A stretch of DNA of 56,419 bases from NCBI GenBank assembly GCA_964420455.1, contig CAYQTO010000007.1, positions 1 to 56,419 on the forward strand. The letters run 5' to 3'. The notes below the pieces were generated by a model, which saw nothing but the letters and a program-made list of their open reading frames with translations, was not told where the DNA came from and did no database searches. Position 1 is the stretch's first letter; every line of letters begins with the position of its first letter. The position numbers and the translations under genes were made by a program. Source of the DNA: an uncultured Candidatus Sumerlaeota bacterium (lineage in GTDB: Bacteria; Sumerlaeota; Sumerlaeia; SLMS01). This document shows positions 3,833-43,056 of this stretch, piece after piece.

Positions 3833-5062
3833 CTACCCCACAACCCCGAGGCCTCTGAGGATCGGGTGAACGAGGATTTCGGTGCCGGCCTCGAGGGGGT
3901 CGGGGCCGGGGGGGGCGAGGGCCAGGGCGTTGCTCCTCGCCGGGTTGAGCAGGTTCGCGCTGTTCTGGTTGTCGTAGGGGTGGGCGAAGAGCGCGCCGTC
4001 CTCGACCACGAGGCGTGTATAGACAAAGAAAAGGCGGTCCGGGTCGCGGGGGCAGTCGACGGCGAGGTGGGCGCGGAGGGTGGGGGCGTGGGCGGGCTCG
4101 ATGCCGTAGCACCGCCGGAGGAAGGGTTTGAGGAAGATCTCGGCGTTGCAGATGGTGGAGACCGGGTTGCCGGGGAAGCCGAAGTGGGGGGTGCCGTTGA
4201 TGGTGGCAAGGAGCATGGGCTTGCCGGGGCGGACGCGGACTCTCCAGAAGTGGATGGTGGCGCCGAGTTGTTCGAGGGCGCGGCCGACGACGTCGTGTTC
4301 GCCGACGGAGACGCCGGCGGTGGTGACGGCGATGTCGCACCAGTCGAGCATTTCGGCGAAGCGTTTGCGGAAGTCGGCGGGGTCGTCGTGGGCGATGCCG
4401 AAGAGGTGGGGCTCGCAGGCGCAGTCGCGGAGGGTCTGCTCGAGGTAGTAGAGGCTGGAGCCGATGATCTGGCTGCCGATGGGGGATTGGCCGTGGGCGA
4501 GGATTTCGTCGCCGCTGGTGAGGATGCCGACGCGCAGGGGGCGGTAGACGTTGAGGGTGGGGAGGTTGAAGCTGGCGAGGAAGGAGAGGACCTCGGGGGT
4601 GATGGGGGTGCCGGGGGGGAAGAGGGGGGCGTCGTGCTGGACGTCGGAGCCATGGCGGCGGACGTTTTGGCGTTGGGCGGGGGGGGAGGTGAAGACGACC
4701 CAGTCGTCCTCGCGGCGGACGGCCTCGAAGGGGACGACGGCGTCGGCGCCGGCGGGGAGGCGGGCGCCGGTGCTGATGCGGACGGTTTCGCCCGGTTCGA
4801 GGGGGTGCTCGTAGGCGTGGCCGGCGGCGCTTTCGCCGGCGATGGCGAGGAAGTCCGGGGTGGTGCTGCTGGCGGAGGCCAGATCGCCGGCGCGGACCGC
4901 GTAGCCGTCCATGGCGGAGTTGTCAAATCGGGGCATCGCCCAGGGGGCGCGGGCGGATTCGGCGAGGATGCGTCCGGCGGCCTTCAGGAGCGGGACGCGC
5001 TCGCTGGTGGGGGGCTTGGCCAGGGCCAGGATGCGCTCGAGCGCAACTCCGTAATCGATCAT
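3833..5062 (-). CDS. moeA: molybdopterin molybdenumtransferase MoeA
   Basis: 409 aa. FDNSAMDGYAV motif and typical MoeA domain order and length. Confidence 0.9.
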   Translation of the reverse strand: MIDYGVALERILALAKPPTSERVPLLKAAGRILAESARAPWAMPRFDNSAMDGYAVRAGDLASASSTTPDFLAIAGESAAGHAYEHPLEPGETVRISTGARLPAGADAVVPFEAVRREDDWVVFTSPPAQRQNVRRHGSDVQHDAPLFPPGTPITPEVLSFLASFNLPTLNVYRPLRVGILTSGDEILAHGQSPIGSQIIGSSLYYLEQTLRDCACEPHLFGIAHDDPADFRKRFAEMLDWCDIAVTTAGVSVGEHDVVGRALEQLGATIHFWRVRVRPGKPMLLATINGTPHFGFPGNPVSTICNAEIFLKPFLRRCYGIEPAHAPTLRAHLAVDCPRDPDRLFFVYTRLVVEDGALFAHPYDNQNSANLLNPARSNALALAPPGPDPLEAGTEILVHPILRGLGVVG

Positions 5063-5086
5063 GGGCTGTCGGGATTCCTCCTTGCC

Positions 5087-6469
5087 ATGGGGACGTGGCC
5101 GGACACACTCGCCGCAACCCGACGCTTGGAGTCAACCGCGCCCGTGTTTGATGACGTCCCCACTTATCCCTTGGACCGCCCGGCGGTCCGCCCCCTCGAG
5201 GTGATCCCCATCCGCGCCCAGGAGCAGAACATGCTCATGGTTCGCGATCCGCTGGGGTTGATCGAGGGGGTGGCGCTGCTCCCGCCGGACCCGATGCTGC
5301 TGATGTTCCTCCAGATGGCCGACGGCAAGACCACAACCGGCGAGATGGCCCACCGCGTGACCCAGCTCTCGGGGCAGATCATCCCGGCGGGCATGTTCGA
5401 CAGCATGGTGCAGCAGCTGGACGAGGCGTTGCTGCTCCAGAGCGAGCGCTTCGTGGAGGCGCTGCGCAAGAAGTACGAGGATTTCATGGCGAGCCCAACG
5501 CGTCCGTACCGGGTGTTCCGGATGGATGGCCAGGACCGGCTGGCGATGATGAAGGAGCTGGGGGACGAATTCCGGCGCCACCGGATGAGCAGCCTGTCGC
5601 CGCCGGAGCGGCTCGACCTGCCGGCGAGGAGCGTGCAGGCGATCCTCTCGCCGCATATCGATTACCAGCGCGGGGGCGAGGTGTACGCCTGGGCCTACAA
5701 GGCGCTGAAGGAGCACGGGACGGGGGCGCGGACCCTCGTGGTGCTGGGAACGTCGCACCGGCCGACGAGCCACCGCTTTGTGGCCACGGCGAAGGACTAC
5801 GACACGCCGCTCGGCACCGTCGGGACGGACAAGGAACTGCTCGAGGAATTGCGCGAGGCGTTCGATGGCGAGCTGTGGCAGGATGAGTACATCCATGCGG
5901 ACGAGCACGCGATCGAGCTGCAGGCGATGTACCTCAAGCACATGTTTGGGGACGAGTGTCCGCGGATTGTGCCGATCCTGGTGGGCAGCTTCGACGACTA
6001 CCTGGAGGACGGCACCGGCCCGAAGGACGACGAGGAGATCCAGGCCTTCATCAAGGCGTTGCGGTCGGTGCTGGACAAGCACGGCAACGCGGTGGGGGTG
6101 ATCGGCGGGGTGGACTTTTCGCACTGCGGGCCGGAGTTCGGCCACGAGGAGCTGAACGAGGACGAGCGGGTGAAGGAGATCGAGGATTCGGACCGGGCGG
6201 TTCTCGACGCGATCGAGGCGGGCGACCCGGATGCCTTCTTCGACGTGTTCCGCAAGGACGGCAACGGGACCAACGTTTGCAGCATTGCGCCGATCTACTG
6301 CGTGATGGCGGCGATGCGCGACCGGGCGAAGGCGCGGGTGCTGAAGTACAACAAGGACAATTCGCCGGACAAGACGTGCCTGGTGAGCTTTGCGAGCGTG
6401 GCCTACTTGGACAAGGACGTCGCGGACACGGGCGGGGGCGCGCCAAAGATCATCCTGGTCAGCCGCTGA
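5087..6469 (+). CDS. MEMO1 / AmmeMemoRadiSam system protein B family, with a ~135-aa N-terminal extension
   Basis: SPHIDYQRGG, VVLGTSH, HAIELQAMYL and GGVDFSHCG are the Memo-family metal-site motifs. The 3866-5086 part of the tracked ORF is antisense to moeA and is rejected. The first in-frame ATG after moeA is 5087, so the start is uncertain. Confidence 0.8.
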   Translation: MGTWPDTLAATRRLESTAPVFDDVPTYPLDRPAVRPLEVIPIRAQEQNMLMVRDPLGLIEGVALLPPDPMLLMFLQMADGKTTTGEMAHRVTQLSGQIIPAGMFDSMVQQLDEALLLQSERFVEALRKKYEDFMASPTRPYRVFRMDGQDRLAMMKELGDEFRRHRMSSLSPPERLDLPARSVQAILSPHIDYQRGGEVYAWAYKALKEHGTGARTLVVLGTSHRPTSHRFVATAKDYDTPLGTVGTDKELLEELREAFDGELWQDEYIHADEHAIELQAMYLKHMFGDECPRIVPILVGSFDDYLEDGTGPKDDEEIQAFIKALRSVLDKHGNAVGVIGGVDFSHCGPEFGHEELNEDERVKEIEDSDRAVLDAIEAGDPDAFFDVFRKDGNGTNVCSIAPIYCVMAAMRDRAKARVLKYNKDNSPDKTCLVSFASVAYLDKDVADTGGGAPKIILVSR

Positions 6470-6609
6470 GGCGAGCGAGGCCGGGGACACAGCAACGGGC
6501 GGAAAGACATCCGGGCCGCGAGAGCGGCCCGGCACGGTGCGTTCGCCCGCCACACCACCCACGGGGTCCGTCATTGCCCACCGTTTCACCACCACAGGTC
6601 TTCCACCGC

Positions 6610-9600: not shown

Positions 9601-10026
9601 CTGGAGGCGCAGCGGGTCACATTTTACAAGCGATTCGCGGGAGTGCGGACGGAAGGGGAACTGGACGAGCTGGTGGGGGAGATGCGCGACCGTTTCGGGG
9701 AGCTGCCGGTGGAGGCGCAGCAGCTGGCGGAGTCGTACCGGCTTCGGATCGCCTGCCAGGGGCCGCGGGTGGGGGCGGTGAAGAAAAGCCTCCAGAAGGT
9801 GCGGCTGACGCTGATCGAGCCAAAGGCGCAGGAGCAGGCGGACGCGTGGCGGGCGGCCGCGGCCGAGACCGCGGGCGTGGCCACCGCCGTGGCGGATACC
9901 TTCGACCAGGTGGTGCTCACCCTTGATTCCGGGGTCACGCCGGGGGAAGCGTATCCGGCGGTGACGGCGCTATTGCGCGGCGTCGCCGGGCGGATCCAGG
10001 CCGAAAGCAACGGAGGAGCCCCATGA
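6610..10026 (+). CDS. mfd: transcription-repair coupling factor Mfd
   Basis: GDVGYGKTEVA Walker A, VVDEEQRFG DEEQ box, helicase motifs and a C-terminal TRCF domain. No ATG lies near the N-terminus. Candidate starts are GTG 6610 or TTG 6574. Confidence 0.9.
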   Translation: MLAERSEPLAKVLGELREGKRTVLLEQLPGSSLPFVLSEIVRAERRPLVVLTAGGERAEDLTGDFEFFGLQPALHFPKWEVLPYDSEPLSIEVTAKTLDAFEAILRRKADADAPPFVLCAPVDAMMLRVLPTERLEELTVRIEWGATVDPAELGERLSSAGYSREPLVEARGEFSIRGGIIDIYPLNAENPIRIDLFGDEIESIRTFDVSTQRSLEDLGTEASLVVPPARLKSHIEEAVREGAPLDTFFQHLPEDTIVVLESPERFPEVCEYFESAVARQHEIAEKASGGSLPSPEKIIIPAAELVAHLEPFRRLEHSLNPTEGDRKSVRVRFPAQHYGPEASDLPSWMAQIRKLQSQDYLVVVVCDNDGQVQRFDELLREEEISAVSVFEQGWTEGFELKGVLEGYQDVLLMVGGVQTGFALPDIRLCVITDREIFGRYKRRYVYKKIYKGKPVQSSSEIRRGDFVVHVDHGIGRFLGMRVQEIDGRKVDLIEIEYADENKLLVPVDKIHKVQKYSGPESAEPSLDKLGSTKWAKRRKKHSEEIEKIADELLELYAARDLARRPEHTPDTHLQREFEASFLYQETPDQLQAIRDTKKDMEQPRPADRLVCGDVGYGKTEVAIRAIFKCVQSGRQAAVLCPTTILAQQHYNTFRERFADYPVRLDMISRFRKPQESREVKRKAKAGELDVVVGTHALLAKDMAFKDLGLVVVDEEQRFGVKAKERLKEMRTEVDMVTLSATPIPRTLHMALSGLRDLSIITTPPPDRQPIKTRIIQFDEEQIAEAILRELNRGGQVYFVHNRINTMDEVVRRLREIVPHARIVPAHGQMKESELEETMLKFIDREFDILVSTTIIESGVDIPNCNTIIINRADAFGLAQLYQLRGRVGRERRRAYAYLIVPQGRAITETAVKRLAAIEEFAELGAGFSIAMRDLEIRGAGDLLGKQQHGTITEIGFELFCELLEEKVSEKRQDVRPRFHDVDIRWDASAYLPPAYIPLEAQRVTFYKRFAGVRTEGELDELVGEMRDRFGELPVEAQQLAESYRLRIACQGPRVGAVKKSLQKVRLTLIEPKAQEQADAWRAAAAETAGVATAVADTFDQVVLTLDSGVTPGEAYPAVTALLRGVAGRIQAESNGGAP

Positions 10027-10421
10027 GCGAGCTGCAGGACCTGATGAAGAAGACCTTCGGCATGAAAAGGTGGGCGGTTGTGGGTGCCCATGAGGACCCG
10101 GCGCGATACGGATACAAGCTGTTCCGCGTGCTGAAGGACCGGGGATACAACGTGGCGCCGGTGCATCCCCGGCTGAAGGAAATCGACGGCGACACCGTCT
10201 ATACGAAGCTGGCGGAGATCCCGGAGCCCCCGGAGGTCGTCGACATGGTCGTCAACCCGGACCGCGGCATCCGGGTCATGGAGGAAATCCGCGACCTGGG
10301 CATCAAGTACGTCTGGATGCAGCCGGGGACGCGCAGTGACGAGATTCGCCAGTTCGCCGACGAGAACGGCATCACGCTGATCGAGGACTGCGTGCTGACG
10401 CGGATCGACCGGTTCATCTGA
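10023..10421 (+). CDS. CoA-binding domain protein (YccU-like)
   Basis: 132 aa. WAVVGAHEDPARYGYK...GYNVAPVHP...VWMQPG pattern of small CoA-binding proteins. Start overlaps the mfd stop (ATGA). Confidence 0.75.
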   Translation: MSELQDLMKKTFGMKRWAVVGAHEDPARYGYKLFRVLKDRGYNVAPVHPRLKEIDGDTVYTKLAEIPEPPEVVDMVVNPDRGIRVMEEIRDLGIKYVWMQPGTRSDEIRQFADENGITLIEDCVLTRIDRFI

Positions 10422-10451
10422 CCCCACGGAAACGAGGCATTACGCACGGGC

Positions 10452-15625: not shown

Positions 15626-15627
15626 GC

Positions 15628-16125: not shown

Positions 16126-17287
16126 GTTCGACAGCGCGATCGAGTCGGGCAACGGCGTCGGGTTCGAGCCGGCGGGAGACGGTGTCTATACATTCCGCCT
16201 GAGGCCGGACACCAACTCCGACGACCGCCAGTGGTTTCACTTCCGTATTTCCGGGGCCATGGGCAGCGCGCTGACGCTCCGGCTCGAGGGCACCACGGAC
16301 TGCAACGTGCCGAGCCACTTTGCCTTCGCCCGCCCGGTGGTCTCCCACGACGGCGGCACGACCTGGCATCACGTGGGCGGGGACTGCACCCATGATCCCG
16401 CGGCGGGGACGTTCACCTTTTCCGTCGCCCCCCGGAGCGATGACTGCCGGGTCGCCCTCGCGGTTCCGTATACACACAGCGACGTCCAGCGGGCGATCCG
16501 CCGGTGGACGCAGCACCCGTTCGTCCGCCACGCGGTTGTTGGCGCTTCCATCGAGGGGCGCGACATCGACTATCTGCGCCTCGACCCGCCAGAGGTTGCC
16601 GGATCGCCGCGGCAACCGTCGGTCTGGCTCACCGCCCGCCAGCACGCCGGAGAGACACCCGCCTCCTTCACCTTCGAGGGCCTGGCGGACTTCCTCGTCT
16701 CCGACGATCCCCGCGCCGCGGGCCTGCGCGAACGCGTGCCCCTCCACATCCTCCCCATGCTGAACCCCGACGGCGTGGTGGCCGGAAACTATCGCGACAA
16801 CGCGGCGGGCACGAACCTCAACCGCACCTGGAAAAGTCCTGACCCCGCCACCGCCCCCGAGATTCATGCGGTCCACGCGCTCATGGAGCGGTGGGAGGAT
16901 TCCGGCGGGTCCGTCGACTTCTTCATCGACTTCCATAGTGACTCCTTCGCGCGCGAGCACTACGCCTTCCACGCGGCGCCGGGGGCCGATCCTCCCCGCT
17001 ATCCCGCGCCGGAGGAATACCATGCGGACAGCGCCCGGTTCCTCCGGCTCGTCGCCGCCCAGGCACGCCTCTTTCTCCCCGGCAAGGGTGCCTCCTACAG
17101 CGAAGACGAGGGCATCAGCTATCACTATATACGCAACCGCTTCGGCTGCCTCGCCTTCATTCCCGAATCCGGCTACTCCTTCGTCAGCCACGGGCCTATG
17201 GCCGGCAAGCTGATGACTCCCGACGACCACCGGGCCGTCGGACGCGCGTTCGGCCTGGCGCTGGCCCATCACTTCTCGCCGGACTGA
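16115..17287 (+). CDS. M14-family zinc carboxypeptidase (cytosolic-carboxypeptidase-like subfamily)
   Basis: N-terminal FDSAIESGN beta-sandwich signature, then LTARQHAGETPAS (HxxE zinc site) and FIDFHSD. ATG 16115 overlaps the upstream gene end. Confidence 0.7.
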   Translation: MAIEFDSAIESGNGVGFEPAGDGVYTFRLRPDTNSDDRQWFHFRISGAMGSALTLRLEGTTDCNVPSHFAFARPVVSHDGGTTWHHVGGDCTHDPAAGTFTFSVAPRSDDCRVALAVPYTHSDVQRAIRRWTQHPFVRHAVVGASIEGRDIDYLRLDPPEVAGSPRQPSVWLTARQHAGETPASFTFEGLADFLVSDDPRAAGLRERVPLHILPMLNPDGVVAGNYRDNAAGTNLNRTWKSPDPATAPEIHAVHALMERWEDSGGSVDFFIDFHSDSFAREHYAFHAAPGADPPRYPAPEEYHADSARFLRLVAAQARLFLPGKGASYSEDEGISYHYIRNRFGCLAFIPESGYSFVSHGPMAGKLMTPDDHRAVGRAFGLALAHHFSPD

Positions 17288-19161
17288 AAGCGGAAGACGC
17301 GGCCGCCGAGCGGGTCGCGCCGGATTTCCTCCAAATAGGTCTCGCGGAACCGCGCCGCCTCGCCTCCGTCGAGCGGTTCCAGCGTATACACATGTGTCCA
17401 GCCGCGATGGTGGAAGACGGCCGCCATCTCCGCCGCGGAATGGCCCGTCTCCTCGAGTGTGGTGATGACCTCGCGCGCGATGCAGGGAGCGTTGGGCGTG
17501 CAGCGCACGCGGAGCAGCGGCAGCGTGGGGATGGCGCGCGACGCCAGCAGGCGATCCTCCGGCCCGAGCGTGCCATTGATCCAGTCGATTGTCGTCGCGG
17601 TGGGGGCATGGGCCGCGTACCATTCCCCGGCTTGGGCGCTTGTCAGTACGGGTGCCACCGGCGGCGTGGCGATCGCCTTGCGCCCGAACTGTCTATACAG
17701 GGCGAAGTCATATGCGTTTCGTGCGCCGTGGGTGACCGCCCCGGCCAGCAGGAGCGTCGCCATCCAGGGCATCCCGGAGCGGGCGGTGATTCGGACCAGT
17801 TCGTTTCCGGCGGCCAGCACCGCAATCGGGTAGAGCGGGTAGAGGAAGCGCCAGAACGGAGCGAAGACAAGAGGCACCACCGCCAGGCAAAGCCAGAGGG
17901 AAAGGAGCAGCCGGAAGCCCCCCTGCGCGGGGTCCGTCCGTCGCAACAGCAGCCAGCCGAGCAGGGCCCCGGGACCCAGAAACAGGATCCCCGTCACGCT
18001 CGACAGCTTCGCGTTCGAGTTCAACACGTAGAGATGGTCGATGGTGAGGGCCGATCCGCCGGGTCCCCCCTCGCCGTAGGCGTAGTAGCGGGCAAAGAAG
18101 GTCATGCCTACCCGCACGTCGTCGAAGGGTGGAAAAACGTCGACCAGAAAGGGAAAGAAAGGGCTTCCTGTATAGACGGTGTTCTTGAGCCACCAGGGCA
18201 CCGAGGGGGGGGCCATCGCCACGCCGAGGAGGATCGTGCGCGCGAACACCGGACGCCACTCCTCGCGACGGACCACGATGCAGGCGACGGGATAGGCGAG
18301 CCATGCCGGCAGGAGGAGCGCGGCGCCGGTTTGCTTGACGGCGGCAAGACAGCCGAGAAGGAGGCCGGCAAGCACGAGGCTTTTGCGGCTGCCATTCTCG
18401 GTCGCCCCCGCCAGGGCGATGGCGCCCGCTACGGCATACAGCATGCCGCCGGCATCGACATGGGCGGTCACCCCGTAGCGGCCGACGTCCTCGCTCGCGA
18501 GGACGAGGAACGCGGCCGTATAGCCAAGCGCGCGGCCTTGGAGCCAGCGCCCAAGCCCCGCCACGCCAATCGCGGCACCAACACAGCGGCCGAGCTCCAT
18601 CAACTTGGCAACAATGACCCCCCCGGGCTCGATCGCCAACGCCCAAAGGTAGGTCATCTGCGAGAGGAAATGCCAGTTCGAGTGGGGCTCGTAGGGGAAG
18701 CGGACGATGGCGCCTTCGTTGAGCCAGGCCGCGGGGACGGAGAGGTGATAGACAATCGAGTCGATCTCGAGCTCCGGGCTGAAGGTCATCCAGAGCAGGA
18801 GGACGAGCGGGGAGCCGGCGAGGAGAAAGCCCGCCGCGTCCCACGCGTCGAGGCTGCGGAGCGAGGCCAGAAGGGGAGCTCTCAGGAGAACAGTCGTATA
18901 GACAAGGAAGCCCGCGAGGAGCAGGGCGATGAGGGAGACCATCCAGCCGGGTGGGAGGACGAGGACGCCAATGGCAAGGGTGAGGGTGGAGAGAAGCGCC
19001 TGGCCCGCGGAGAGGAGAACGCAGGCAGCCATGAGGAGGCGGGCGGCCGGATCGGCACCATCGGGCAGGGCGGAAAGGAGGAGGCGGCGGAGGGGCGGCC
19101 ACGCGACGCCGGCGCCAAGGCAGGCGCCGTGGAGCAGCAACGCAAGGGCGAGCCAGTCCAC
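17269..19161 (-). CDS. polytopic membrane protein, GT-C-type (family 39/ArnT-like) glycosyltransferase candidate
   Basis: 630 aa. More than 10 predicted TM helices followed by a soluble C-terminal domain. Similarity to PMT_2-type enzymes is judged only from topology and loop motifs. Confidence 0.4.
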   Translation of the reverse strand: MDWLALALLLHGACLGAGVAWPPLRRLLLSALPDGADPAARLLMAACVLLSAGQALLSTLTLAIGVLVLPPGWMVSLIALLLAGFLVYTTVLLRAPLLASLRSLDAWDAAGFLLAGSPLVLLLWMTFSPELEIDSIVYHLSVPAAWLNEGAIVRFPYEPHSNWHFLSQMTYLWALAIEPGGVIVAKLMELGRCVGAAIGVAGLGRWLQGRALGYTAAFLVLASEDVGRYGVTAHVDAGGMLYAVAGAIALAGATENGSRKSLVLAGLLLGCLAAVKQTGAALLLPAWLAYPVACIVVRREEWRPVFARTILLGVAMAPPSVPWWLKNTVYTGSPFFPFLVDVFPPFDDVRVGMTFFARYYAYGEGGPGGSALTIDHLYVLNSNAKLSSVTGILFLGPGALLGWLLLRRTDPAQGGFRLLLSLWLCLAVVPLVFAPFWRFLYPLYPIAVLAAGNELVRITARSGMPWMATLLLAGAVTHGARNAYDFALYRQFGRKAIATPPVAPVLTSAQAGEWYAAHAPTATTIDWINGTLGPEDRLLASRAIPTLPLLRVRCTPNAPCIAREVITTLEETGHSAAEMAAVFHHRGWTHVYTLEPLDGGEAARFRETYLEEIRRDPLGGRVFRFQSGEK

Positions 19162-19175: not shown

Positions 19176-21791
19176 TCAGCGGCGGTGGAGCGTTATCGCG
19201 AAGATATACGCGCCGCGGTCGAACTCGGGCATGCGGACGGCCTCCAGTGCGCGGTCCGGGTCAACGTCCCAGGTCCAGGTGAACATCTCCGTCGGCGGAT
19301 GGGCGTTGCCATAGGGGACATAGCGGTGGGGGGCACGGAACGCCCGGGCGAAACCCGGCGGCGGCGGCGTGCACCATTCTGGAATCTGCGAGTCGATGGC
19401 TTCCGTTGATCCGTCTGTATAGACGAGTTCCCAGGTGCCGGGGTGCTTGCCGTCGTGGCCGAAGCCGATCATCGAAATCGCGGCATACTCGTCCTCGGGG
19501 ACGGCGATGAGCTGGCCCTTGGGCAGCAGGGCGTTCAGCTTGCCGTCCTCGAGCGAGGGCATCCGAAACGGTACGCCGTGGGTGCGCAGCTCCCGGTCCG
19601 ACGGCGTGAAGTCCGCGGGATAAATGAACATGCCCATTTCCTTCGTATAGTCGTCGCGGTTGGTGGCGAAGGAAACGGCGTCGTAGTTGAAGTCGTCCGT
19701 GAGGTCGAGCATCACCGCGTCGCTCACCGCGGGCCTGTCGACGACGGTCACGGTGAAGGGGACCCTGCTGATGGCACCGAGAAAGCGGACCTCGATCTCG
19801 CCCGTGTGGTCGCCGGGGGGCGTGCTTCCGGAAAGGGAGAGCGGAAAACGTTCACGGAGGCGCTCGCCGGGTTGGAGGGTACGGTTTGGCGGTGCTGTTC
19901 CGGCATCGATGGGGCCGGCGATTTCGAAACCATAGGAAAGGTCGATCGGTTCACTGCTGGTGTTGCGGAGCTGGAGCTCGACCAGGTTGGGCTCGCCGGG
20001 CACCGCATAGACGGGTGTGGGGACGACCTGCGTCTCGAGGGGACTGCGGACGGGAATCGTGAGGGGAATCGACCGGGTGACGTCGAGCGTGTCGTCGCCG
20101 GGTGCGGGGACGAACTCGGCGTAGGGGGAGATGCGACCGTCGAGGACCACGGACTCGGCGGTAAGTGTATAGACAAGTTCGGTCCGCGCGCCGGGCTCCA
20201 GGGCGATGTCGGTGCCGCCCTGCGGCTCGAGAGTCCAATCGCCGGGAACGCGCTTGAGGGTCACCGTTCCGCGGAGGGAGGTGTGGCGGGCGTTGAGGAC
20301 GGACACGCGGAGCTGGCGCTCGTCGCCGAGGGAAAGTGGCTCGTCATTCCCCCAAAGGTCGAGCGCGGGTCCCCGCTGGTGGTTCATGTCGGAAAAGGCG
20401 AAGTGGGGCTTGCCGGCGGTGGTGACCGTATAGGCGCGGGCCTCGCCGGGGTCGAGTTGTGCGGTGAGGACAAGCTGGCGGCCGGAGACCGGCGTCGCCG
20501 TGTAGGTGCCCTGGTAGTCGGGGACGAGCCGGTCGACGAGGAGCACGGCGGGCCCGGAGACGTCGGGGAGGGTGAGCCGTAGTTCCACCTCGCGGGACTC
20601 CTCCGCCCGGTTGCGGACAACCGCCGTCGAGAGCTGCGAGTCGCCACGGGTGTCGCTGCTGGCGGTCACCTGGATGTCCGGGGCCTGTTCCCCCTCCGCG
20701 AGCGTATAGACGTGTTCGCCGGCGAGGTTGCGAAACAGCCAGTAGGGCCGATACGTCCCCGGGATGATGCCGCCCATCTTGTCAACGAGGCCAAAGGAGT
20801 AGTTCCCCGATTCGTTGTACTCCATGCAGCAGAAGTGGTGGACGGCGAGGAGGAGATTCTGGATGGAGAGGAAGGCGAACTGGCGGTCGAGGATGAACTG
20901 CATCTTGTCCCAGCCCTGAAACCAGGCGTCGGTTTCGGTGATCATCACGCGGCCGTTTTCCTTGCCGGGGAGCTGTCGGAACATTTCGGCGTACTTGCGG
21001 ACGGATTCGACGAGGATCTCGTGGCCCTGGCCCTGTGGTCCGTAGTGATGAAAGATGAGGTAGTCGGCGTTCGGGCCGCATTCGGCGACAAAGTCGCGCA
21101 TCCATCCCTCGGGGTCGTCGCCGCTGTGGGTGATGGTGGGGCCGCCGATCATCACGCCGGGGTAATCGCGGCGGATGCGGTCGGCCACGGTGTTGTACAG
21201 GTCGAAGTAGGACTGGCGCGTGCCCTGGTAGAACATGCCCATGTTGGGCTCGTTCCAGACCTGGAGGTACTTGAGGTTGGGGGCGTAGTCCGGGCCGCGC
21301 CGGCCGTTGTAGTGCTCCACCACGGCGGCGGCGAATTCCGCCCACTCCTCGTTGTCGCTGATGGTGGTGTTCGCGTCGTTGTCCGACAGCCAGTCCACCC
21401 CATAGCCGAGTAGGACCAGGGGCTCCATGCCGAGTCTGTCTTTATAGACATCCTCGAAGGCGCCGATGTCCTCGATGAAGCGGATCATGCGGTCCGTGTG
21501 GAGGCGGTCCCAGTCGAAGGTCTCCGGATCGTCATTGTCGTTTTCCGGTTCGAGGCGGGAGATCCAGGTCTCGAGCCGGGTCTGCGTCCCCTCGGGGTTC
21601 AGCCGGGCGAAGGTCTCCATGACCATTGGGTCGGGCTCGACGTAGACTTGCATGAATCCCTGGGTGCTGAAGAGGGCACGGTTCACCCGGCCGGTGGGGT
21701 GGGTCCAGTCAACGGTGATGGTGGCATCGGGGGCGGCCGGGATGGTGGGGGCCAGTGCGGCCAGGATGGCGACAATCGCGAGGCAGCGCAT
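19176..21791 (-). CDS. secreted clan GH-A glycoside hydrolase with C-terminal beta-sandwich domains
   Basis: Start chosen at MRCLAIVAILAALAP (signal peptide). YLQVWNEPN is the acid/base NEP motif, and VMITETDAW is the nucleophile Glu motif of (beta/alpha)8 GH-A enzymes. The upstream 55 codons of the tracked ORF are rejected. Confidence 0.6.
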   Translation of the reverse strand: MRCLAIVAILAALAPTIPAAPDATITVDWTHPTGRVNRALFSTQGFMQVYVEPDPMVMETFARLNPEGTQTRLETWISRLEPENDNDDPETFDWDRLHTDRMIRFIEDIGAFEDVYKDRLGMEPLVLLGYGVDWLSDNDANTTISDNEEWAEFAAAVVEHYNGRRGPDYAPNLKYLQVWNEPNMGMFYQGTRQSYFDLYNTVADRIRRDYPGVMIGGPTITHSGDDPEGWMRDFVAECGPNADYLIFHHYGPQGQGHEILVESVRKYAEMFRQLPGKENGRVMITETDAWFQGWDKMQFILDRQFAFLSIQNLLLAVHHFCCMEYNESGNYSFGLVDKMGGIIPGTYRPYWLFRNLAGEHVYTLAEGEQAPDIQVTASSDTRGDSQLSTAVVRNRAEESREVELRLTLPDVSGPAVLLVDRLVPDYQGTYTATPVSGRQLVLTAQLDPGEARAYTVTTAGKPHFAFSDMNHQRGPALDLWGNDEPLSLGDERQLRVSVLNARHTSLRGTVTLKRVPGDWTLEPQGGTDIALEPGARTELVYTLTAESVVLDGRISPYAEFVPAPGDDTLDVTRSIPLTIPVRSPLETQVVPTPVYAVPGEPNLVELQLRNTSSEPIDLSYGFEIAGPIDAGTAPPNRTLQPGERLRERFPLSLSGSTPPGDHTGEIEVRFLGAISRVPFTVTVVDRPAVSDAVMLDLTDDFNYDAVSFATNRDDYTKEMGMFIYPADFTPSDRELRTHGVPFRMPSLEDGKLNALLPKGQLIAVPEDEYAAISMIGFGHDGKHPGTWELVYTDGSTEAIDSQIPEWCTPPPPGFARAFRAPHRYVPYGNAHPPTEMFTWTWDVDPDRALEAVRMPEFDRGAYIFAITLHRR

Positions 21792-21852: not shown

Positions 21853-22599
21853 CTAGCCGTTGGGGTGTTGTCGGCCATGGTAGCGCCAGTGCCAGGGCTC
21901 GCTGATGTAGCCCGTCTCGGCGGTGTTGTCGTCCGTATAGCTCCTCCGAAAGCCAAAGGAGGCGGCGTTTGCGGCGAGCCACTGCCCCTGGGGCGTGTCC
22001 TGGAAGGCGTGCTCGAAGTTGTACCGCTGGTCGGGATCGGTGAGGTCGACGGTGGTGCCGAGCTGGTGTTCGCTGTGGCCGGGGCGGGCGCTGTAACGCT
22101 GGCCGTTGCCGTCGCGGTCGCACGCGGCGAGATAGAGGGCGCGCTGGCGGATGCCGGGGCGATAGGCGGAGATGATGCGCATGTCGACGTCGTCGTTCGC
22201 AGCCGCCTCGAGCATTTTCAGGACGGCGGCGAGCGCCTCGCGGCGCAGGCGGTAGTCCTTGCCGTCGGGAATCGTCCAATTGGGTGGGATGGGTTCAAGA
22301 TCGCCGGGCTCGTACTCAATGGGCACGCCCCACCACCGGTCGACTACTTCCCTGCCGATGGCCAGGTCGCCGTCCTGGAGGTTGTCCGGGTGGACACGGA
22401 GGAGGGCCGTCATGGAGACGAAGGCGGGGCTTCCGTCGATCTCCGTCTCGAGCCACTCCTCGTCCGTTTCCGGGTTCACGTGGATGGCGGTGCCGGTCAC
22501 CTGCAGGCCGGCTGTATAGACGCGGCAGACTCCCGAGGCGTCTGTGGGCTGCTCGCGGGCGAGGGTATCCGCAAAGAGGGTGTAGGGGGCGTCTTGCAT
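21853..22599 (-). CDS. M15-family D-Ala-D-Ala carboxypeptidase (VanY-like)
   Basis: SAYRPG, GHSEHQLGTTVDL and EPWHWRY zinc-site motifs. No signal peptide on the longest possible ORF. Confidence 0.8.
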   Translation of the reverse strand: MQDAPYTLFADTLAREQPTDASGVCRVYTAGLQVTGTAIHVNPETDEEWLETEIDGSPAFVSMTALLRVHPDNLQDGDLAIGREVVDRWWGVPIEYEPGDLEPIPPNWTIPDGKDYRLRREALAAVLKMLEAAANDDVDMRIISAYRPGIRQRALYLAACDRDGNGQRYSARPGHSEHQLGTTVDLTDPDQRYNFEHAFQDTPQGQWLAANAASFGFRRSYTDDNTAETGYISEPWHWRYHGRQHPNG

Positions 22600-26485: not shown

Positions 26486-27562
26486 TCAACCTTTTCTGGC
26501 CAGCAGATAGAGGAAGAACGGCGCACCCACCAACGCCGTGACGATCCCCACGGGCAGCTCCGCCGCTCCCGATCCCGTCACCCACCCGAGGGCGAGGCGC
26601 CCCACGGCGTCGCACACCGGCAGGAACGCCGCCCCCCCCAGCAGGCACGCCGGCAACAGCGCCACATGCCCCGCCCCGAACACCCGCCGCATCGCATGGG
26701 GCACCACCAGCCCCACAAAGCCGATCGGCCCCGCGAACGCCACTACCACCGCCGTGACAAACGACGCCGCCCCCAGCCCCAGAAGCCGCACCCGCTCCAC
26801 CGGCACCCCAAGGTTATGCGCCGACTCCTCGCCAAACGTCAGCAGGTCCAGCGGCCTTGCCAGGATCATCAGCACCACCGCCACCGCCACTAGCACGAGC
26901 GCCACGCCCTGCACGATCTCCAGGGAGGCCACGTCCAGCCCTCCCATCATCCACCGCAGCAACATCAGCGTCTGGTACGGGTCGCTGATGTACTGTACCA
27001 GGAGGATACCGGCGGCGAAGAAGACATTGAGCGTGACCCCGGCAAGGAGAAGGGTCGCGGGCGAACGCATGGTGCCCCGCATCCTCGCCAGGGCATTGAT
27101 GGCCGCGACCGCCACGGCGGCGCCGGCGAAGCCCCCTGCCGGAAGCGTATAGACACCCGCCCAGGCCGGCCCGAGGTTCAGGAAAAGCAGCGCCCCGAGA
27201 GCCCCGCCCGTCGCCACGCCAAGGGAGAACGGTTCCGCCAGGTCATTGCGGAGGATCGCCTGGTAGACCGCGCCGGCAATCGCCAGTGCCGCCCCGGCAA
27301 CCAGAGCGAACAGCACCCGTGGCAGCCGCGCATCAAACAAGAGGAACGCGTCAACGTTGGGCCCTTGCACCTCCACCAACCCAAGCGCGCGGCCATAGTC
27401 GATCGACTCGGTGCCCACCAGCGGCGTCAGCACCGCCGCAGACCCCACCAACGCCAGCAACACAGCCCACCGGCCCCACGAGCGACGACCGCGAGATGCA
27501 TTTCCTTCGTCCCCCCCGCCGGAGGGCAAGCCGTCCAGCAACGCCTCGCGAACCGTGCTCAT
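26486..27562 (-). CDS. FecCD-family ABC importer permease (BtuC/HmuU-like)
   Basis: 358 aa, about 10 TM helices. Typical FecCD central and C-terminal GxxPFxGL-like region (GPIGFVGLVVPH). Confidence 0.9.
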   Translation of the reverse strand: MSTVREALLDGLPSGGGDEGNASRGRRSWGRWAVLLALVGSAAVLTPLVGTESIDYGRALGLVEVQGPNVDAFLLFDARLPRVLFALVAGAALAIAGAVYQAILRNDLAEPFSLGVATGGALGALLFLNLGPAWAGVYTLPAGGFAGAAVAVAAINALARMRGTMRSPATLLLAGVTLNVFFAAGILLVQYISDPYQTLMLLRWMMGGLDVASLEIVQGVALVLVAVAVVLMILARPLDLLTFGEESAHNLGVPVERVRLLGLGAASFVTAVVVAFAGPIGFVGLVVPHAMRRVFGAGHVALLPACLLGGAAFLPVCDAVGRLALGWVTGSGAAELPVGIVTALVGAPFFLYLLARKG

Positions 27563-28344
27563 CGCACCAGCCCCAGCATCGGGGCGCCATCCGGCCGGGT
27601 GGCCGTCGTCAGCCGAGTCCCGTAAACCGGCTCCAGAACCTCCGGCCGCAGGACCTCCTCCGGCGATCCATCCGCTGCAATCCGTCCGCCAGCCATCACC
27701 GCCAGTCGCGAGCAGTACAGCCCCGCCAGGTTGATGTCATGGGAGACCACGAGGATCGTGAGTCCGCCCTCCGAATGGAGCCGGTCGAGCAACTGGAACA
27801 GGGTGCGCTGGTGGGCGGGATCGAGGAAGGTCGTCGGCTCGTCGAGGAGGAGGACTTCGGGGCACTGGGCGAGGGCGCGGGCGAAGAGGACCAACTGGCG
27901 TTCGCCACCGGACATTTCCGCAAGGCGGCGGGTACCAAAATCCTCGAGGCCCACCAGCCGCAGCACCGCCTGCGCAATGCGCCGGTCCTCCTCGTCGTCG
28001 GTCCCGCTCAGGAGGAACTGATGCGGGTAACGTCCCATGCGGACGACCTCGCTCGCGGTAAAGGGAAACAGGCCTTCCTCGCGCTGGGGGACGACGGCGA
28101 CCTCCCGGGCAAAGGCACGCCGATTCCACGAACCGACCGGCCGCCCCTTGTAGCGGAGGGATCCCTCCACCGGCACGAGCCACCCGCTCATCAACCGCAG
28201 CAGCGTCGACTTCCCCACGCCATTCGGCCCGATCAGCGCCGCGAAGTCCCCCCGCCGCAGGTCCCAGTCCAGACCCTCCAGCACCCGCCGCCCCTGTCTA
28301 TACCGATGAACGACGTTCCGGGCCTCAAACAGCGGCGTGGTCAT
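27559..28344 (-). CDS. ABC importer ATP-binding protein (BtuD/FecE/HmuV-like)
   Basis: GPNGVGKSTLL Walker A, MSGGERQ signature, LLLDEPT Walker B. ATGA-type overlaps on both sides. Confidence 0.9.
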   Translation of the reverse strand: MTTPLFEARNVVHRYRQGRRVLEGLDWDLRRGDFAALIGPNGVGKSTLLRLMSGWLVPVEGSLRYKGRPVGSWNRRAFAREVAVVPQREEGLFPFTASEVVRMGRYPHQFLLSGTDDEEDRRIAQAVLRLVGLEDFGTRRLAEMSGGERQLVLFARALAQCPEVLLLDEPTTFLDPAHQRTLFQLLDRLHSEGGLTILVVSHDINLAGLYCSRLAVMAGGRIAADGSPEEVLRPEVLEPVYGTRLTTATRPDGAPMLGLVR

Positions 28345-29219
28345 GGGGCGGGCGCGGGTTCCCTCTTGGCGAGAAGCGACTGGAGACGCCGGGCGCTGGC
28401 AACGACACCCGGCCCGGGAATCGTCAGATGCGGGTCGTTGAGAAAGAGGATCCGCGTGCCGGTGGCCCCGGGGCCAAGGGCGCGCTTCCAGGCAACCCGG
28501 GCCTCCTCCTTCTCCGCCTCCGTATAGTCCAGTTCGCCGGATCGCGTCTCCACCACCACGTCTGGCGGGTTGGCGATCAGGAACTCGCGCGAGACGGTGG
28601 GGTAGGGGACCTTTGTCCCCTCGAGGACGTTGCGGGCGCCGGCGGCCGTCATCAGTTCATCGACGAAGGTCCCCGGCCCCGCGCTGAAGATTTCCCGAAC
28701 CGGCCCCATCGGGCGGCCAAGAACGAGCAGGACGCGCGGCTCGCCAAGTTCCCGTCCCGCTTCGCGGAGCGCGGCCAACTCCCCCTCGAATGTCTGGACG
28801 GCCCCCTTCGCCTCCTCCTCGTGGCCGAGTTCCCTGCCGATCGCGAGCAGGCCCTCGCGGATATCCGCCAGCGTCTCTGTCCGCACGGCTACCGTCCGGA
28901 TCCCGGCGCCGCCAAGACGCCGATCCAGGTCCGTCTCGCCCGGTGTCAGCAGCGCCACCGTTGGCCGAAGCGCCACCATCCGTTCGAAGTTTGGATTCAG
29001 GTAGCCGCCAACCTTGGGCTTTTCGGCCGCCTCCTGCGGAAATCGGCAGTAGTCCGTGACCCCCACCACCAGATCGCCCGCATCCAGTGTATAGACCATC
29101 TCGGTGATGCTGGGCGCGAGCGACAGAACCCGGGGGGGATCCTCGCTCCGGGCAGGCAGGAGAAGCAGGCAGAACAGAACAACCAGAAGCGGACGCATGG
29201 GGTGGCTTTCCTCGGGCAT
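28341..29219 (-). CDS. periplasmic substrate-binding protein, class III (BtuF/cobalamin or siderophore type)
   Basis: Signal peptide, then RVLSLAPSITEMVYTLDAGDLVVGVTDYC, typical of BtuF-like binding proteins. Confidence 0.8.
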   Translation of the reverse strand: MPEESHPMRPLLVVLFCLLLLPARSEDPPRVLSLAPSITEMVYTLDAGDLVVGVTDYCRFPQEAAEKPKVGGYLNPNFERMVALRPTVALLTPGETDLDRRLGGAGIRTVAVRTETLADIREGLLAIGRELGHEEEAKGAVQTFEGELAALREAGRELGEPRVLLVLGRPMGPVREIFSAGPGTFVDELMTAAGARNVLEGTKVPYPTVSREFLIANPPDVVVETRSGELDYTEAEKEEARVAWKRALGPGATGTRILFLNDPHLTIPGPGVVASARRLQSLLAKREPAPAP

Positions 29220-37306: not shown

Positions 37307-37342
37307 GTCTCACCCCTCGGACGCCATGAAGGGATGGTTCCG

Positions 37343-37376
37343 CTCCCCCCGGCGCTCGTCGGGGGGAGTGGTGTTT
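37343..37376 (+). terminator. GC-rich hairpin plus partial U-tract between convergent genes
   Basis: CTCCCCCC (37343-37350) pairs with GGGGGGAG (37361-37368). 10-nt loop, followed by TGGTGTTTGG. Confidence 0.45.
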
Positions 37377-37468
37377 GGAGGATCCTTTCAGGAGGCGGCG
37401 TCTCCCGGCCTTGATGCCGAACATCGCGTTCCCATTTCAGGGACTGTGTTGGGGGACCTGAGCCGGGG

Positions 37469-38491: not shown

Positions 38492-38518
38492 GGGGTCTCC
38501 GGAGGGGAGTGTGGTGGG

Positions 38519-39193: not shown

Positions 39194-39440
39194 GGGGGAG
39201 GAGACCTCGGGAGGAATCGGTGGCTCCGACGGCGCGGAGGAGGAGTTGGCTTTCTCCCCGTATCGGAAACGACCAATCGTTGACTGACAGAGAATGAATG
39301 CGTTTGCAAGCTCTTTCCGGACACAAGACGTCCGTAGGCGCGTTTTCCCGGGATTTCTTCGTTGCCATGCCGCGATTGGGTCGCTAGCACTCCGCGCATC
39401 CCACAAGGGCTTGGACTTACGTCCCGCCCTCCTGCGGCCG

Positions 39441-40736
39441 ATGAAGAACCCCGCCAGCCGTGCCCTTAAAATTCACGAGAAGTTACGCCGCCGCCAGCGT
39501 CCCCACAGCGGCCCGCGGACCGGTGTTGCGCAAATCAAGCGCAAACCCATCACCGATTGGGTGAACGGCAAAGCGTTCTCGATCGTTCACAAGAACAATC
39601 TCGTTTACAATACCTGCTGGGAGGATCCCCGTCTCGATCTCGAGGCGCTGGAGCTGACGCCCAACGATACGGTCGCCATGATCACCTCGGCGGGATGCAA
39701 CGCGCTTGATTACGCGATCGAGGGCCCCCGGCGCATCCATGCGATTGACATGAACCCGCGCCAAAACGCGGTGCTCGAGATGAAGATCGCCGGAATCCGC
39801 GAACTGGAGTACGAGCGCTTCTTCGAGATGTTCGGCCGCGGGCGCCTCGCGGACTTCGACCAGGTCTACCGCCGCCAGCTCCGCCGTCACCTCTCTCCCT
39901 GGGCCCGCCGCTACTGGGATCGCCATTCCAAGTTCTTCACGGGCCGCAAGTCCTTCTACTTCTGCGGCTCCTCGGGTACCGTGGCCCGCTTCTGCAATTA
40001 CTACATCGACAAGGTGGCCAAGATCCGCGAGGACGTGGACCTGTTGCTGGAGGCGAAGACCCTCGAGGAACAGAAGGTCATCTACGATCGGTCCCTGCGC
40101 ATCGCCTTCTGGACGAAGTTCATGAAGCGATTTGTTGGGAGCGGCACCACGCTGTCGATGCTGGGGGTGCCTCGCCAGCAGCGCCAGCAGGTGGAGCTCC
40201 ACTTCGGCGGCGGAATCGCCGGCTTTATCGAGGATTCCATCGAGACCGTCTTCACCCGACTTCCGCTGCACGACAACTACTTCTGGCGGGTGTACCTCAA
40301 GGGCGCCTACTCGGAGAGCTGCTGCCCGCGCTACCTCTCGCGCGAGGGCTTCGAGAAGCTGCAGGGCGGCGCCGTCGACTGTATAGACATTCACACGAAT
40401 ACGATCGAGGGGTTCCTCCGCTCGACCGACGAGCCCGTATCGCGGTTTATCCTCCTGGACCACATGGACTGGTTGAGCACGTTCAAGTACGGTGCGCTGG
40501 TTTCGGAATGGCAGGCGATCGTGGACCGGGCCGCGCCGAAATCGCGGGTGCTGTTTCGCAGCGGCGGGCTCAAGGTCGAGTTCGTGGACCCGATCGAGGT
40601 GAAGGTAAACGGTACACGCACGCGTCTCGGCGAGATGCTTTCCTACCAGAAGGAAAAAGCGGAGCGCCTCCACGCGGTCGACCGGGTGCATACCTACGGC
40701 AGCTTCTACATCGCGGACCTGGCGCCGGCGGGATGA
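39441..40736 (+). CDS. btaA: S-adenosylmethionine:diacylglycerol 3-amino-3-carboxypropyltransferase BtaA (DUF3419)
   Basis: [14 protein letters not shown] and [11 protein letters not shown] are DUF3419/BtaA signatures. Start chosen at MKNPASR (39441). Confidence 0.8.
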
Positions 40737-41461
40737 GCCTGCTGTCCGACGCCCGCATCCTCTATCATCTTGTCTTTCATCGCGCCGGTGGCGAGGACCA
40801 CCAGCAGCGGCTCGAGAACTTCTATTCGGGCCAGGCTTCGGGGTATGATGACTTCCGGCGGCGGCTGCTGAAGGGGCGCGAAGCGTTGTACCGCTCGATC
40901 CCCGTGCCCGACGGGGGTGTGTGGCTCGACATGGGGGGCGGGACTGGGGCGAATCTCGAGGCAGTCGCGGACCGTATCCCGAGGTTGTCGAAGGTGTATG
41001 TTGTGGACCTGTCGACGTCGCTGCTGGAGGTGGCGCGGGCACGCATCGCCCGCGAGGGCTGGACGAACGTCGAGGCCGTCGAGGCCGACGTCACGACCTT
41101 CCGGCCCCCGGAGCAGCGTATAGACGTGGTCACCTTTTCTTACTCGCTGACGATGATCCCGGACTGGTTTGCAGCGGTGGATCACGCGGCGGACCTGCTC
41201 GCCCCCGGTGGGCACATCGGCGTGGTGGACTTCTTCGTGTCGCGCAAGTATCCCGGCGAGGGGCTGCGACGCCACGGATGGTTTACGCGGCACTTGTGGC
41301 CGACCTGGTTCGCGAGCGACAACGTGTTCCTGTCGCCGGACCACGTGCCTTACCTGCAGCGGCGGTTCGAGACGGCGAGGCTCGCTCAACGGCGCGGCGC
41401 GGTGCCGTACATGATGGGGCTGACGGTGCCCTATTATCAGTTCCTGGGTCGCAAGCGGTAG
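40733..41461 (+). CDS. btaB: diacylglycerylhomoserine N-methyltransferase BtaB
   Basis: Class I SAM motif [11 protein letters not shown]. Length and ATGA coupling to btaA are typical of btaAB operons. Confidence 0.8.
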
Positions 41462-43056
41462 AAGAACACGGGCCATCCCTGGTAGTTGTCAAAGACGTCG
41501 TAGGCGCGGATTTCCTCGATCCCGGCGTAGTGGTCGTTGAGGGCCTTCCAGCGGAGGCCGCCCTCGCCGGCGGTGGCGGTCTGGTGCTGGTCGAGGTGGT
41601 CGCGCGAACGGACGTCGCTTTCAGTGACGAGATAGCGGGGTTCCCAGAGGTCGAGGCGTTCGTCGAGCGGCGAGGGAGCAAAGCGGTCGTTGACGGGTAT
41701 GAGATCGGTATAGAGGGCGAAGGTGGTGGAGAAGTGGCCGAGGAGGATCGGGGGGGCGTCGGGGTCCGCGGCGATGGTGGCCTCCACGTCGCGGGCCATC
41801 TCGGCAAAGGAGTAGCTGATGTTGGCCTGGTAGGAGGCGAGGTCGCGGAGGCTCCGGCCGAGGGAGAGGACCAGCGCGCCTGTATAGACAATTACGAGCG
41901 TGTGGCGCAGCCAAGGGGGGCGGGCATCGGTGAGGAGGTACTTCAGGCCGAGGGCAATTAGCGTCCCCGCGGGGAGATACAGCGGCGCCCAGTAGCGCGG
42001 ACGGAAGTTCACGTAGAAGCTGAACATGGCAATATAGACGGCCAGCCAGGCGATGGCAAAGAGAACGAGGGGGCTGCGGCGGAAGCCGGGGGAAAAGAGG
42101 AGGAGGAGGGGCACGGCCACGATGACGACCCGGTACATGACCTTGTCGATGAGAAGCATGTGGTCGATCATGTGGAGGGCGAAGTCGGCGACGACGGCGA
42201 GGTCCATCTTGGCGTTCATGCCGACATTGAGAGTGAGGAAGTAGCGGTAGTCCTCGGCGTAGGGGAGGGCGAGGAGAAGGGTGTGGAGGAGGACGACGGC
42301 GGCGGCGCCGGCGGCGAGGGCGAGGGGAACAAGCCAGCGGTCGCGGCCGGAGCGCCAGTGGACCCAGAGGGCGGCGGCGCCCAGAAGGGGGACGGCGAAG
42401 AGGGCGCTGGTCTTGGTATAGAAGGCGAGGGCCCAGGCGACTCCGGCGAGGACGGCGTAGAGGCGCGGGCGGCGGTCTCCGGAAAGCACCAGCAGGTAGA
42501 ACGCGAGGAGGACGAAGAAGCCCATGGGAATCTCGCCGAGGGCGATACGGCTGTATTGATAGAAGAAGAAGTTGGAAACGGGCCAGGCGACGGCGAGGAG
42601 GGCGGTCCAGGGGTCCTCGAAGCGCCGGACAAGAAGGAAGAGGAGGACGAGGGAGCCGGCCATGCAGAGGATGATGGTGGTCCGGGCGGCGATGATATTC
42701 ACGCCGAGAAGGGCGAAGGTGCCTACGTGGAGGATCTGGAGGACGGGGAGGTTGACGGCGAAGTTGAGCTCGCCGGGCCGGTACCACTGGCCGGTCTGAT
42801 AGAGGGCGATGGCGTTGTTGGCGTACCATCCCTCGTCGGTGTAGAGGACGCCGTCGCGGGTGTACTTCTTGTCGCTGATGAAGTCGGCGCCGAGATGGAC
42901 GAAGCGAAAGGCAAAGAGCAGGAGAACGAGGCCGAGGGCCGTAGCGAAGACCCAGCGTTCGCGGTTCCAGCGGGGGCTTTCGGCGGGCTCCTGGCTCATG
43001 TGACGGGGGGCTGGTTGCCTTTTCTTGACGCTGTCTGGCGGGGTCACTTCGATCAA
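41437..43056 (-). CDS. GT-C glycosyltransferase, family 39 / ArnT-like
   Basis: 539 aa, multi-TM. The first periplasmic loop [25 protein letters not shown] matches the PMT_2/ArnT acidic loop. Confidence 0.6.

Follow-up and report, generated by a model that had tools for sequence, protein, structure and literature searches.

Hyper-represented functional DNA words form a small class. The DNA uptake sequences (DUS) of the Neisseriaceae and the uptake signal sequences (USS) of the Pasteurellaceae revealed sequence-specific transformation, and Chi revealed the control of RecBCD; the function of HIP1, the highly iterated palindrome of the cyanobacteria, is still debated. DUS, a 12-mer with dialects, and USS, with a 9-mer core, are short asymmetric words in ~100-fold excess that are mostly genic, take the cheapest reading frame and distort tripeptide usage at weakly constrained positions; they are found in both orientations, differ by single bases among lineages and are accompanied by moderately enriched one-mismatch variants (PMC3630211, PMC2346458, PMC1939737). 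HIP1 (GCGATCGC) is a hyper-abundant octamer imposed on coding sequence (15-300x; PMC5861425), and Chi, with its defining criteria set out in PMC8022716, is GCTGGTGG in E. coli and a motif of 5-8 nt in the Firmicutes. The present analysis concerns another such word, the octamer GTCTATAC, which occurs 16 times in an entire contig of 56,419 bases (the window) from a metagenome-assembled genome (MAG) of Candidatus Sumerlaeota (BRC1).

The traits listed above for DUS and USS recur in the Sumerlaeota word, which has also altered the residues of many proteins, like the uptake signals of Neisseria and Haemophilus and cyanobacterial HIP1. In its ~100x excess, its density of up to 0.6 copies per kb and its information content of ~18 bits, it is closer to DUS/USS and HIP1 than to E. 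coli Chi. Unlike DUS and USS, to which it is unrelated in sequence, it is A/T-rich in a genome of 62-66% GC and belongs to another, uncultured phylum, where it is known from sequence alone. In all probability, the effective consensus of the word, YGTCTATACR, is a recognition signal on which a process peculiar to one branch of the Sumerlaeota acts at the level of duplex DNA; this process very likely holds it at ~100x expectation, with a copy every 1.6-5 kb, in opposition to base composition, codon usage and the protein sequences, and, with the same high probability, lineages that seem to have lost the process lack the word. According to an earlier note, made from the letters of the contig, no motif of this sequence was known, and a full-text literature search agreed, returning eukaryotic papers only and no bacterial motif; nothing comparable was found reported for the Sumerlaeota.

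Abundance of the word in the window and in related genomes

An exact count placed 4 copies of GTCTATAC on the + strand of the window and 12 on the - strand. Dinucleotide-preserving shuffles gave an expectation of 0.10, and none of 100 shuffles got to 16; the expectation under Markov models of order 0-3 was 0.16-0.97, that under a codon-order shuffle was 0.31, and that under a synonymous shuffle in which all protein sequences were kept was 1.84, no more than 7 copies arising in any of 500 shuffles. Among all 8-mers of the window, the word ranked first in over-representation (Poisson P ~1e-14). The 16 copies of the earlier note were thus recovered at the same coordinates, and its argument that chance falls far short withstood every null model, including the codon-preserving shuffle and the Markov-order-3 null that it had proposed. 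Other words were also over-represented in the window, namely TGGACCTG/CAGGTCCA (12 versus 2.0) and GGCTAGCC (4 versus 0.13), and an Rfam search of the window gave no matches.

The base preceding the word (-1) is a pyrimidine in 15 of the 16 copies and the base following it (+9) is A in 10, G in 5 and C in 1, figures that a recount returned unchanged from those of the note. Beyond these two bases the flanks have no shared similarity, which identifies GTCTATAC as a word and not a mobile repeat. One-mismatch variants number 28, and every near-match listed in the note is among them; together with the exact copies they amount to 44 versus ~8.5 expected. By position, one-mismatch variants show a 4-9x enrichment where an outer base is changed and none where the change is in the central TAT. 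Exact copies are missing, as had been noted, from mfd, from an islet of low GC content and from the window past 42 kb. A likeness to the Nextera/Tn5 mosaic end (CTGTCTCTTATACACATCT) was considered and dismissed as a coincidence; the flanks of the word vary, no reading frame is disrupted, and independent assemblies contain the word too.

Related loci were reached through Mfd, a GH39-like protein and BtaA, the nearest Mfd proteins being 70-74% identical and from Sumerlaeota MAGs; scans of genome contigs and of metagenome contigs with Mfd, one of each, yielded five close relatives and no more. The counts that follow come from locus fragments, with expectations from order-2 Markov models unless stated. 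Against 16 observed and 0.18 expected in the 56 kb of the window, the word was found 6 times in 30 kb of Joint Genome Institute (JGI) Ga0105049 (L016 and L020; 0.10 expected), 6 times in 21 kb of SRR14932676 (L023; 0.06), 13 times in 21 kb of GCA_964269675.1 (L027; 0.05), 3 times in 21 kb of GCA_016125005.1 (L028; 0.06), twice in 17 kb of L001 (0.11) and once in 8 kb of L003 (0.02). Pooled over fragments from six organisms, 44 copies were observed versus 0.45 expected in 150 kb (~100x). In de novo k-mer rankings, the word headed the lists for the window, Ga0105049 and L027 and was narrowly beaten into second place in L023; in L027 every TCTATA is part of the full word, which recurs once per 1.6 kb. 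Since the same word is found in independent NCBI, JGI and Logan assemblies, it is not an assembly artefact. L027 also has several frequent 8-9-mers, such as CGAGATGCT (11 copies), for which repeated protein domains are a guess.

The word varies between lineages. Base -1 is a pyrimidine in 40, and base +9 a purine in 42, of the 44 pooled copies, and the latter position shows dialects, with G in 6/6 copies of Ga0105049, A in 6/6 of L023 and a mixture in the window and L027. A MAG of 48% GC, GCA_964437365.1 (L004, L013 and L026), has a variant instead: TGTCTATA is its top 8-mer (14 versus 0.91), and TGTCTATAA occurs 8 times versus 0.54 (order-3 expectation). The palindromes AGAGCTCT (16 versus 3.1) and GCAATTGC (8 versus 1.2) are over-represented there as well. 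A C to A change at position 3 gives the perfect palindrome GTATATAC, which never occurs in the window; it was found 8 times versus 0.32 expected in L016, L020, L023, L027 and L028 pooled, and could represent either another dialect or a variant that is tolerated.

The counts in relatives for which the earlier note had called hence showed the word hyper-represented in several organisms and absent from others. It was not found in L030 (GCA_020848155.1), L011, L014 or an Armatimonadota control, and even the hexamer TCTATA had no occurrence in the three Sumerlaeota loci. L030 (JADLAR010000047.1, 21 kb) is syntenic with L023 and L027 over BtaA, a methyltransferase, HU, a C25 peptidase and an aminotransferase, and it nests within the motif-bearing group in a rough neighbour-joining tree of BtaA; if the tree can be trusted, this lineage has lost the word. 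In L030, a transposase fragment adjoins gyrA.

Reading frame, protein cost and strand

All 16 copies of the window lie within coding sequence (Table 1). Twelve are in the sense orientation and, as the earlier note had claimed, each of them is read in the frame GTC-TAT-ACN, encoding Val-Tyr-Thr (VYT); the other four are antisense, and this 12:4 split concerns a different set of copies from the 12:4 split between strands. VYT is the most over-represented tripeptide of the window, with 13 occurrences versus 1.88 expected (the note had ~2), and 12 of the 13 are spelled with GTCTATAC, using the minor codons TAT and ACA. When chance expectations were computed for each frame from the codon usage of the window, the sense frame had 12 copies versus 0.255 (~47x), antisense G-TAT-AGA-C had 2 versus 0.015 (~130x) and antisense GT-ATA-GAC had 2 versus 0.022 (~90x), the antisense copies forcing, as had been suggested, a rare AGA or ATA codon. 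Given that antisense enrichment is at least as great as that of sense copies, the force acts on duplex DNA. The ratio of sense to antisense copies agrees with the expectation from codon usage, and the sense bias appears to reflect coding cost, the sense frame being the cheapest way of carrying the word.

With the pooled copies, 30 of the 44 were in the sense frame 1, 5 in other sense frames, 7 antisense and 2 intergenic, such that across relatives the word occupies five of the six reading frames in addition to intergenic DNA. Both intergenic copies are single and lie beside, not within, terminator-like hairpins between convergent genes. That 30 of the 44 copies encode VYT might have pointed to a signal in the peptide or in the mRNA (a GUCUAUAC motif), to a by-product of codon-pair bias or to chance. 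However, antisense, other-frame and intergenic copies are enriched no less strongly, a single spelling with minor TAT and ACA codons serves 12 of 13 VYT tripeptides, and shuffles of codon order (0.3) or of synonymous codons (1.8) do not approach 16. Antisense enrichment rules out the peptide signal, the mRNA signal and the codon-pair artefact, and taken together such explanations are wildly improbable; peptide-level, RNA-level, codon-bias and artefact accounts of the word are effectively refuted. The proposal of the note that selection targets the word as DNA and forces it upon coding sequence is therefore strongly supported, by the antisense enrichment, the five frames and intergenic copies, the residue changes described below and the independent related assemblies.

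The cost to proteins is seen at individual sites. In the GH39-like glycoside hydrolase of the window, homologs mostly have HYA or HYT at site 19417, RFR, SFR, TFE and similar at 20167, and AYx or AHx at 20704; 53 GH39-like homologs have 0-1 VYT apiece versus the three of the window protein, and hardly any of the 53 has VYT at these sites. At site 40381 in BtaA, the window has CID, a copy shared with one relative of 97% identity, versus RIS, RIT or RVS in homologs. In L016, mfd contains a copy read in another frame (GTG-TCT-ATA-CGC, VSIR), at a position that is VRIE in the Mfd of the window. A comparison of L023 with L027 showed 7 of 8 genic L027 sites to be gains by multiple substitution (IHA, RFV or AYD to VYT). 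Copies cluster in large, poorly conserved exported proteins (GH39, PMT-like, C25 peptidase), and conserved genes such as the mfd of the window, HU and an aminotransferase have none. It is highly likely that copies are acquired through several substitutions where the protein tolerates change, most often around a conserved Tyr/Phe or Ile/Val with variable neighbours. Two sites are shared between divergent genomes: the codons of window copy 10197 recur exactly at the orthologous position of the L016 CoA-binding gene, and L023:16664 corresponds to L027:16586, with 16 identical nt in a gene of 57% nucleotide identity. Most sites are lineage-specific, although these numbers are small.

Such a record invites comparison with HIP1, according to which the word would be the target of an orphan DNA methyltransferase, the product of sequence-biased mismatch repair converting near-matches or a nucleoid-organising site, and would be kept for chromosome structure or an epigenetic function instead of uptake. 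The fold-excess is comparable to that of HIP1 (PMC5861425), phylogeny is patchy with variants replacing the word, as for the alternate HIPs (PMC4390886), one-mismatch deviations fall mostly at the outer positions, as reported for HIP1, and some sites are kept between divergent genomes. In addition, YGTCTATACR is symmetric apart from one base pair, suggesting a dimeric binder of double-stranded DNA. HIPs are, however, perfect palindromes tied to orphan methyltransferases, and the Sumerlaeota word is asymmetric: its reverse complement is GTATAGAC, symmetry is confined to the framework GT-N-TA-N-AC and the Y/R flanks, and neither of the perfect palindromes GTATATAC and GTCTAGAC has a copy in the window. 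No DNA methyltransferase gene was found in the window or the fetched loci, the only methyltransferase of the window being a BtaB-like, small-molecule type; one-mismatch neighbours are enriched and not depleted, unlike the prediction of a simple repair-conversion model, and most sites differ between relatives. A HIP1-like role is accordingly considered unlikely.

The orientation of the copies was of concern because the earlier note had taken the 12:4 strand bias as possible polarity of a Chi or FtsK-orienting polar sequence (KOPS) type. In L023 and L027, orientation exactly tracks that of the genes. The 12 - strand copies of the window lie in a contig with a mostly positive GC skew on the + strand, and 6/6 copies of L023 lie on the locally G-rich strand, where the sign of the skew is opposite; the 14 TGTCTATA copies of GCA_964437365.1, in three loci, are about equally distributed on both strands. 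With opposite signs of GC skew and even use of strands by TGTCTATA, there is no usable polarity signal, and the 12:4 strand bias is poor evidence for polarity of either type. The strand splits within loci (12:4, 9:4, 4:2, 3:1 and 2:0) are not distinguishable from effects of gene orientation; pooled over loci, the majority strand holds ~73% of copies, versus ~63% expected by chance at these sample sizes. KOPS and other architecture-imparting sequences have a strand skew of ~90% that switches at the origin and dif. Both strands are used by the word in every locus of at least 20 kb, and strong KOPS-type polarity is excluded; a Chi-type polarity of ~75% remains compatible with the locus data.

A Chi-like hotspot would be recognised as single-stranded DNA by the RecBCD/AddAB of the clade, switching degradation to RecA loading and marking self DNA, and selection for double-strand-break repair would keep it frequent in core genes. 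The word has the asymmetric 8-base core of such a signal, and its spacing of about one per 3.5 kb (3.5-5 kb across organisms) is near that of E. coli Chi, one per 5 kb (PMC8022716). It is over-represented in core genes and absent from the foreign-looking islet, and one strand holds most of the copies within single loci (12:4, 9:4, 4:2). To our knowledge, almost all bacteria need a Chi-type motif, and none is known for the Sumerlaeota. Sense copies are also ~8 times denser in the - strand genes of the window, with 10 in 19.7 kb versus 2 in 32.5 kb of + strand genes (p ~0.002). However, antisense copies on the minority strand are ~140x enriched, as strongly as the other classes; the deficit therefore appears to concern the + strand genes as such, which include many conserved housekeeping genes, and not the strand. 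Orientation flips with the genes inside the 21 kb loci of L023 and L027, has no consistent relation to GC skew and gives no evident leading-strand polarity. A ~100x excess, up to 0.6 copies per kb, conserved flanking bases that make it a 10-mer and distortion of the proteome exceed what is described for Chi, and an essential repair signal would hardly be expected to be missing altogether from the nested L030, unless L030 has an altered motif. Neither recBCD nor addAB was found in the window. A Chi-like function is thus doubtful, if marginally less so than a HIP1-like one.

Host genes and other features of the contig

The host genes of the 16 copies, checked by Pfam, are given in Table 1 with other features of the window.

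Table 1. Copies of GTCTATAC and other features of the window; for copies, the third column gives the reading of the word in its host gene.
Coordinates	Strand	Reading or feature	Host gene or remark
4017..4024	-	sense frame 1, FFVYTRL	moeA (3833-5062 -)
10197..10204	+	sense frame 1, DTVYTKL	CoA_binding_2 gene (10023-10421 +)
16184..16191	+	sense frame 1, DGVYTFR	M14 carboxypeptidase gene
17691..17698	+	antisense, TAT-AGA, LYRQ, rare AGA	PMT_2-like membrane protein gene (17269-19161 -)
18170..18177	-	sense frame 1, NTVYTGS	PMT_2-like gene
18896..18903	-	sense frame 1, FLVYTTV	PMT_2-like gene
19417..19424	-	sense frame 1, ELVYTDG	GH39-like glycoside hydrolase gene (19176-21791 -)
20167..20174	-	sense frame 1, ELVYTLT	GH39-like gene
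20704..20711	-	sense frame 1, EHVYTLA	GH39-like gene
22514..22521	-	sense frame 1, CRVYTAG	VanY-type carboxypeptidase gene
27147..27154	-	sense frame 1, AGVYTLP	FecCD permease gene
28296..28303	+	antisense, TAT-AGA, RYRQ, rare AGA	ABC ATPase gene (27559-28344 -)
29089..29096	-	sense frame 1, EMVYTLD	periplasmic binding protein gene
40381..40388	-	antisense, ATA-GAC, CID, rare ATA	DUF3419/BtaA gene (39411-40736 +)
41118..41125	-	antisense, ATA-GAC, RID, rare ATA	S-adenosylmethionine (SAM) methyltransferase gene (40733-41461 +)
41882..41889	-	sense frame 1, VIVYTGA	PMT/GT-C glycosyltransferase gene (41437-42999 -)
441-3826		low-GC islet	~51% GC versus ~66% elsewhere; defence-like genes
441-1210		MNT/HepT-type nucleotidyltransferase-ribonuclease pair	islet
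1848-2672		NERD nuclease domain fused to topoisomerase-type zinc ribbon	islet
2876-3826		DUF4917/SIR2-like protein	islet
3866-6469	+	867-codon frame	gene-like codon statistics
13803-15215		PhoX alkaline phosphatase gene	
23504-24121	-	weak RdgC-like protein	recombination-associated DNA-binding type
39411-41461		DUF3419 gene, then methyltransferase gene	synteny conserved across relatives
49084-51845		two adjacent ABC-3 (Mn/Zn-type) permease genes	each with C-terminal DtxR-type Fe_dep_repr_C metal-binding/dimerisation domain

The enrichment of copies in long genes for envelope, glycan and surface proteins (GH39, PMT, VanY, C25 peptidase), together with the specific, near-symmetric site of 10 bases, would fit a dense array of sites bound by a nucleoid-associated, segregation or transcription-elongation factor, whether of a Noc/SlmA/ParB-like or an RfaH/ops-like kind. 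Equal enrichment of antisense copies is contrary to a signal specific to the transcribed strand, and copies are gained and lost fast. Moreover, the known systems of this kind use tens of sites per genome and not one per 2-5 kb, and an array of this nature is regarded as improbable. The gene for the weak RdgC-like protein lies a short way downstream of the densest cluster of copies; no evidence was found tying it to the motif.

Other features of the window are recorded here for completeness. Several sources identify DUF3419 as BtaA (S-adenosylmethionine-diacylglycerol 3-amino-3-carboxypropyl transferase), and with the methyltransferase that follows it looks like the BtaA/BtaB pair for the betaine lipid diacylglyceryl trimethylhomoserine (DGTS); this pair and PhoX suggest adaptation to phosphate limitation. 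The two permease genes with Fe_dep_repr_C domains, which adjoin ZnuA and an ABC ATPase, represent an unusual fusion of transporter and repressor domain. The 867-codon frame misled two simple gene callers: its first part was rejected as a shadow of moeA by Pfam, and a genuine, Memo-like gene is confined to the final ~300 codons.

Uptake or self-recognition as a candidate function

Of the processes that could hold YGTCTATACR in place, a self-recognition signal of the DUS/USS type for natural transformation is ranked first, if tentatively and by analogy. The magnitude of the excess, the information content, an orientation apparently set by coding cost, the graded near-matches and the dialects are best matched by DUS and USS; with uptake sequences, too, orientation is reported to be set by coding cost (PMC2346458). 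A surface or periplasmic DNA receptor would prefer fragments bearing the word, these fragments would be taken up and recombined more often, and molecular drive would then spread the word until balanced by selection at the protein level; drift in the specificity of the receptor among lineages would give rise to dialects. Drive is favoured over selection site by site by the ~100x magnitude, the density of up to 0.6 copies per kb and the ~18 bits of the word, and because each copy is costly while a single copy would be of little benefit. Type IV pilus genes have been reported in all Sumerlaeota MAGs (PMC8092238), and prepilin-type N_methyl genes are present in L013 and L023.

Several observations weigh against this proposal. 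None of comEC, dprA, comEA and pilQ was seen in the 56 kb window. The copies are clumped, a stretch of 6.3 kb holding 8 of them and the final 14.5 kb lacking them, whereas known uptake sequences are rather evenly spaced, and the asymmetry of sense copies between the - and + strand genes of the window could hint at polarity. Unlike DUS, the word does not form inverted pairs at terminators, and its density, at one per 3.5-5 kb in most organisms (1.6-5 kb with the densest lineage included), is below the ~1 per kb of DUS and USS. Furthermore, we know of sequence-specific uptake in only two proteobacterial families, which sets a low prior for uptake here.

The word itself is a new addition to the few functional DNA words known to be hyper-represented, from a phylum without cultured members. 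That a branch of the Sumerlaeota has its own sequence-specific uptake or self-recognition system, with YGTCTATACR as its signal, dialects among its lineages and loss in some of them, is proposed with slightly more reserve than the type of signal; if true, it would be the first DUS/USS-type system outside the Proteobacteria, and one that rewrites hundreds of protein positions per genome. With dialects in some lineages and absence from close relatives, the cognate protein could be sought by phylogenetic profiling, for which L030 would be a useful negative genome. The word is also a practical marker for binning and for spotting foreign DNA in these genomes, and it provides a natural experiment on how far drive at the level of DNA overrides selection at the level of protein.

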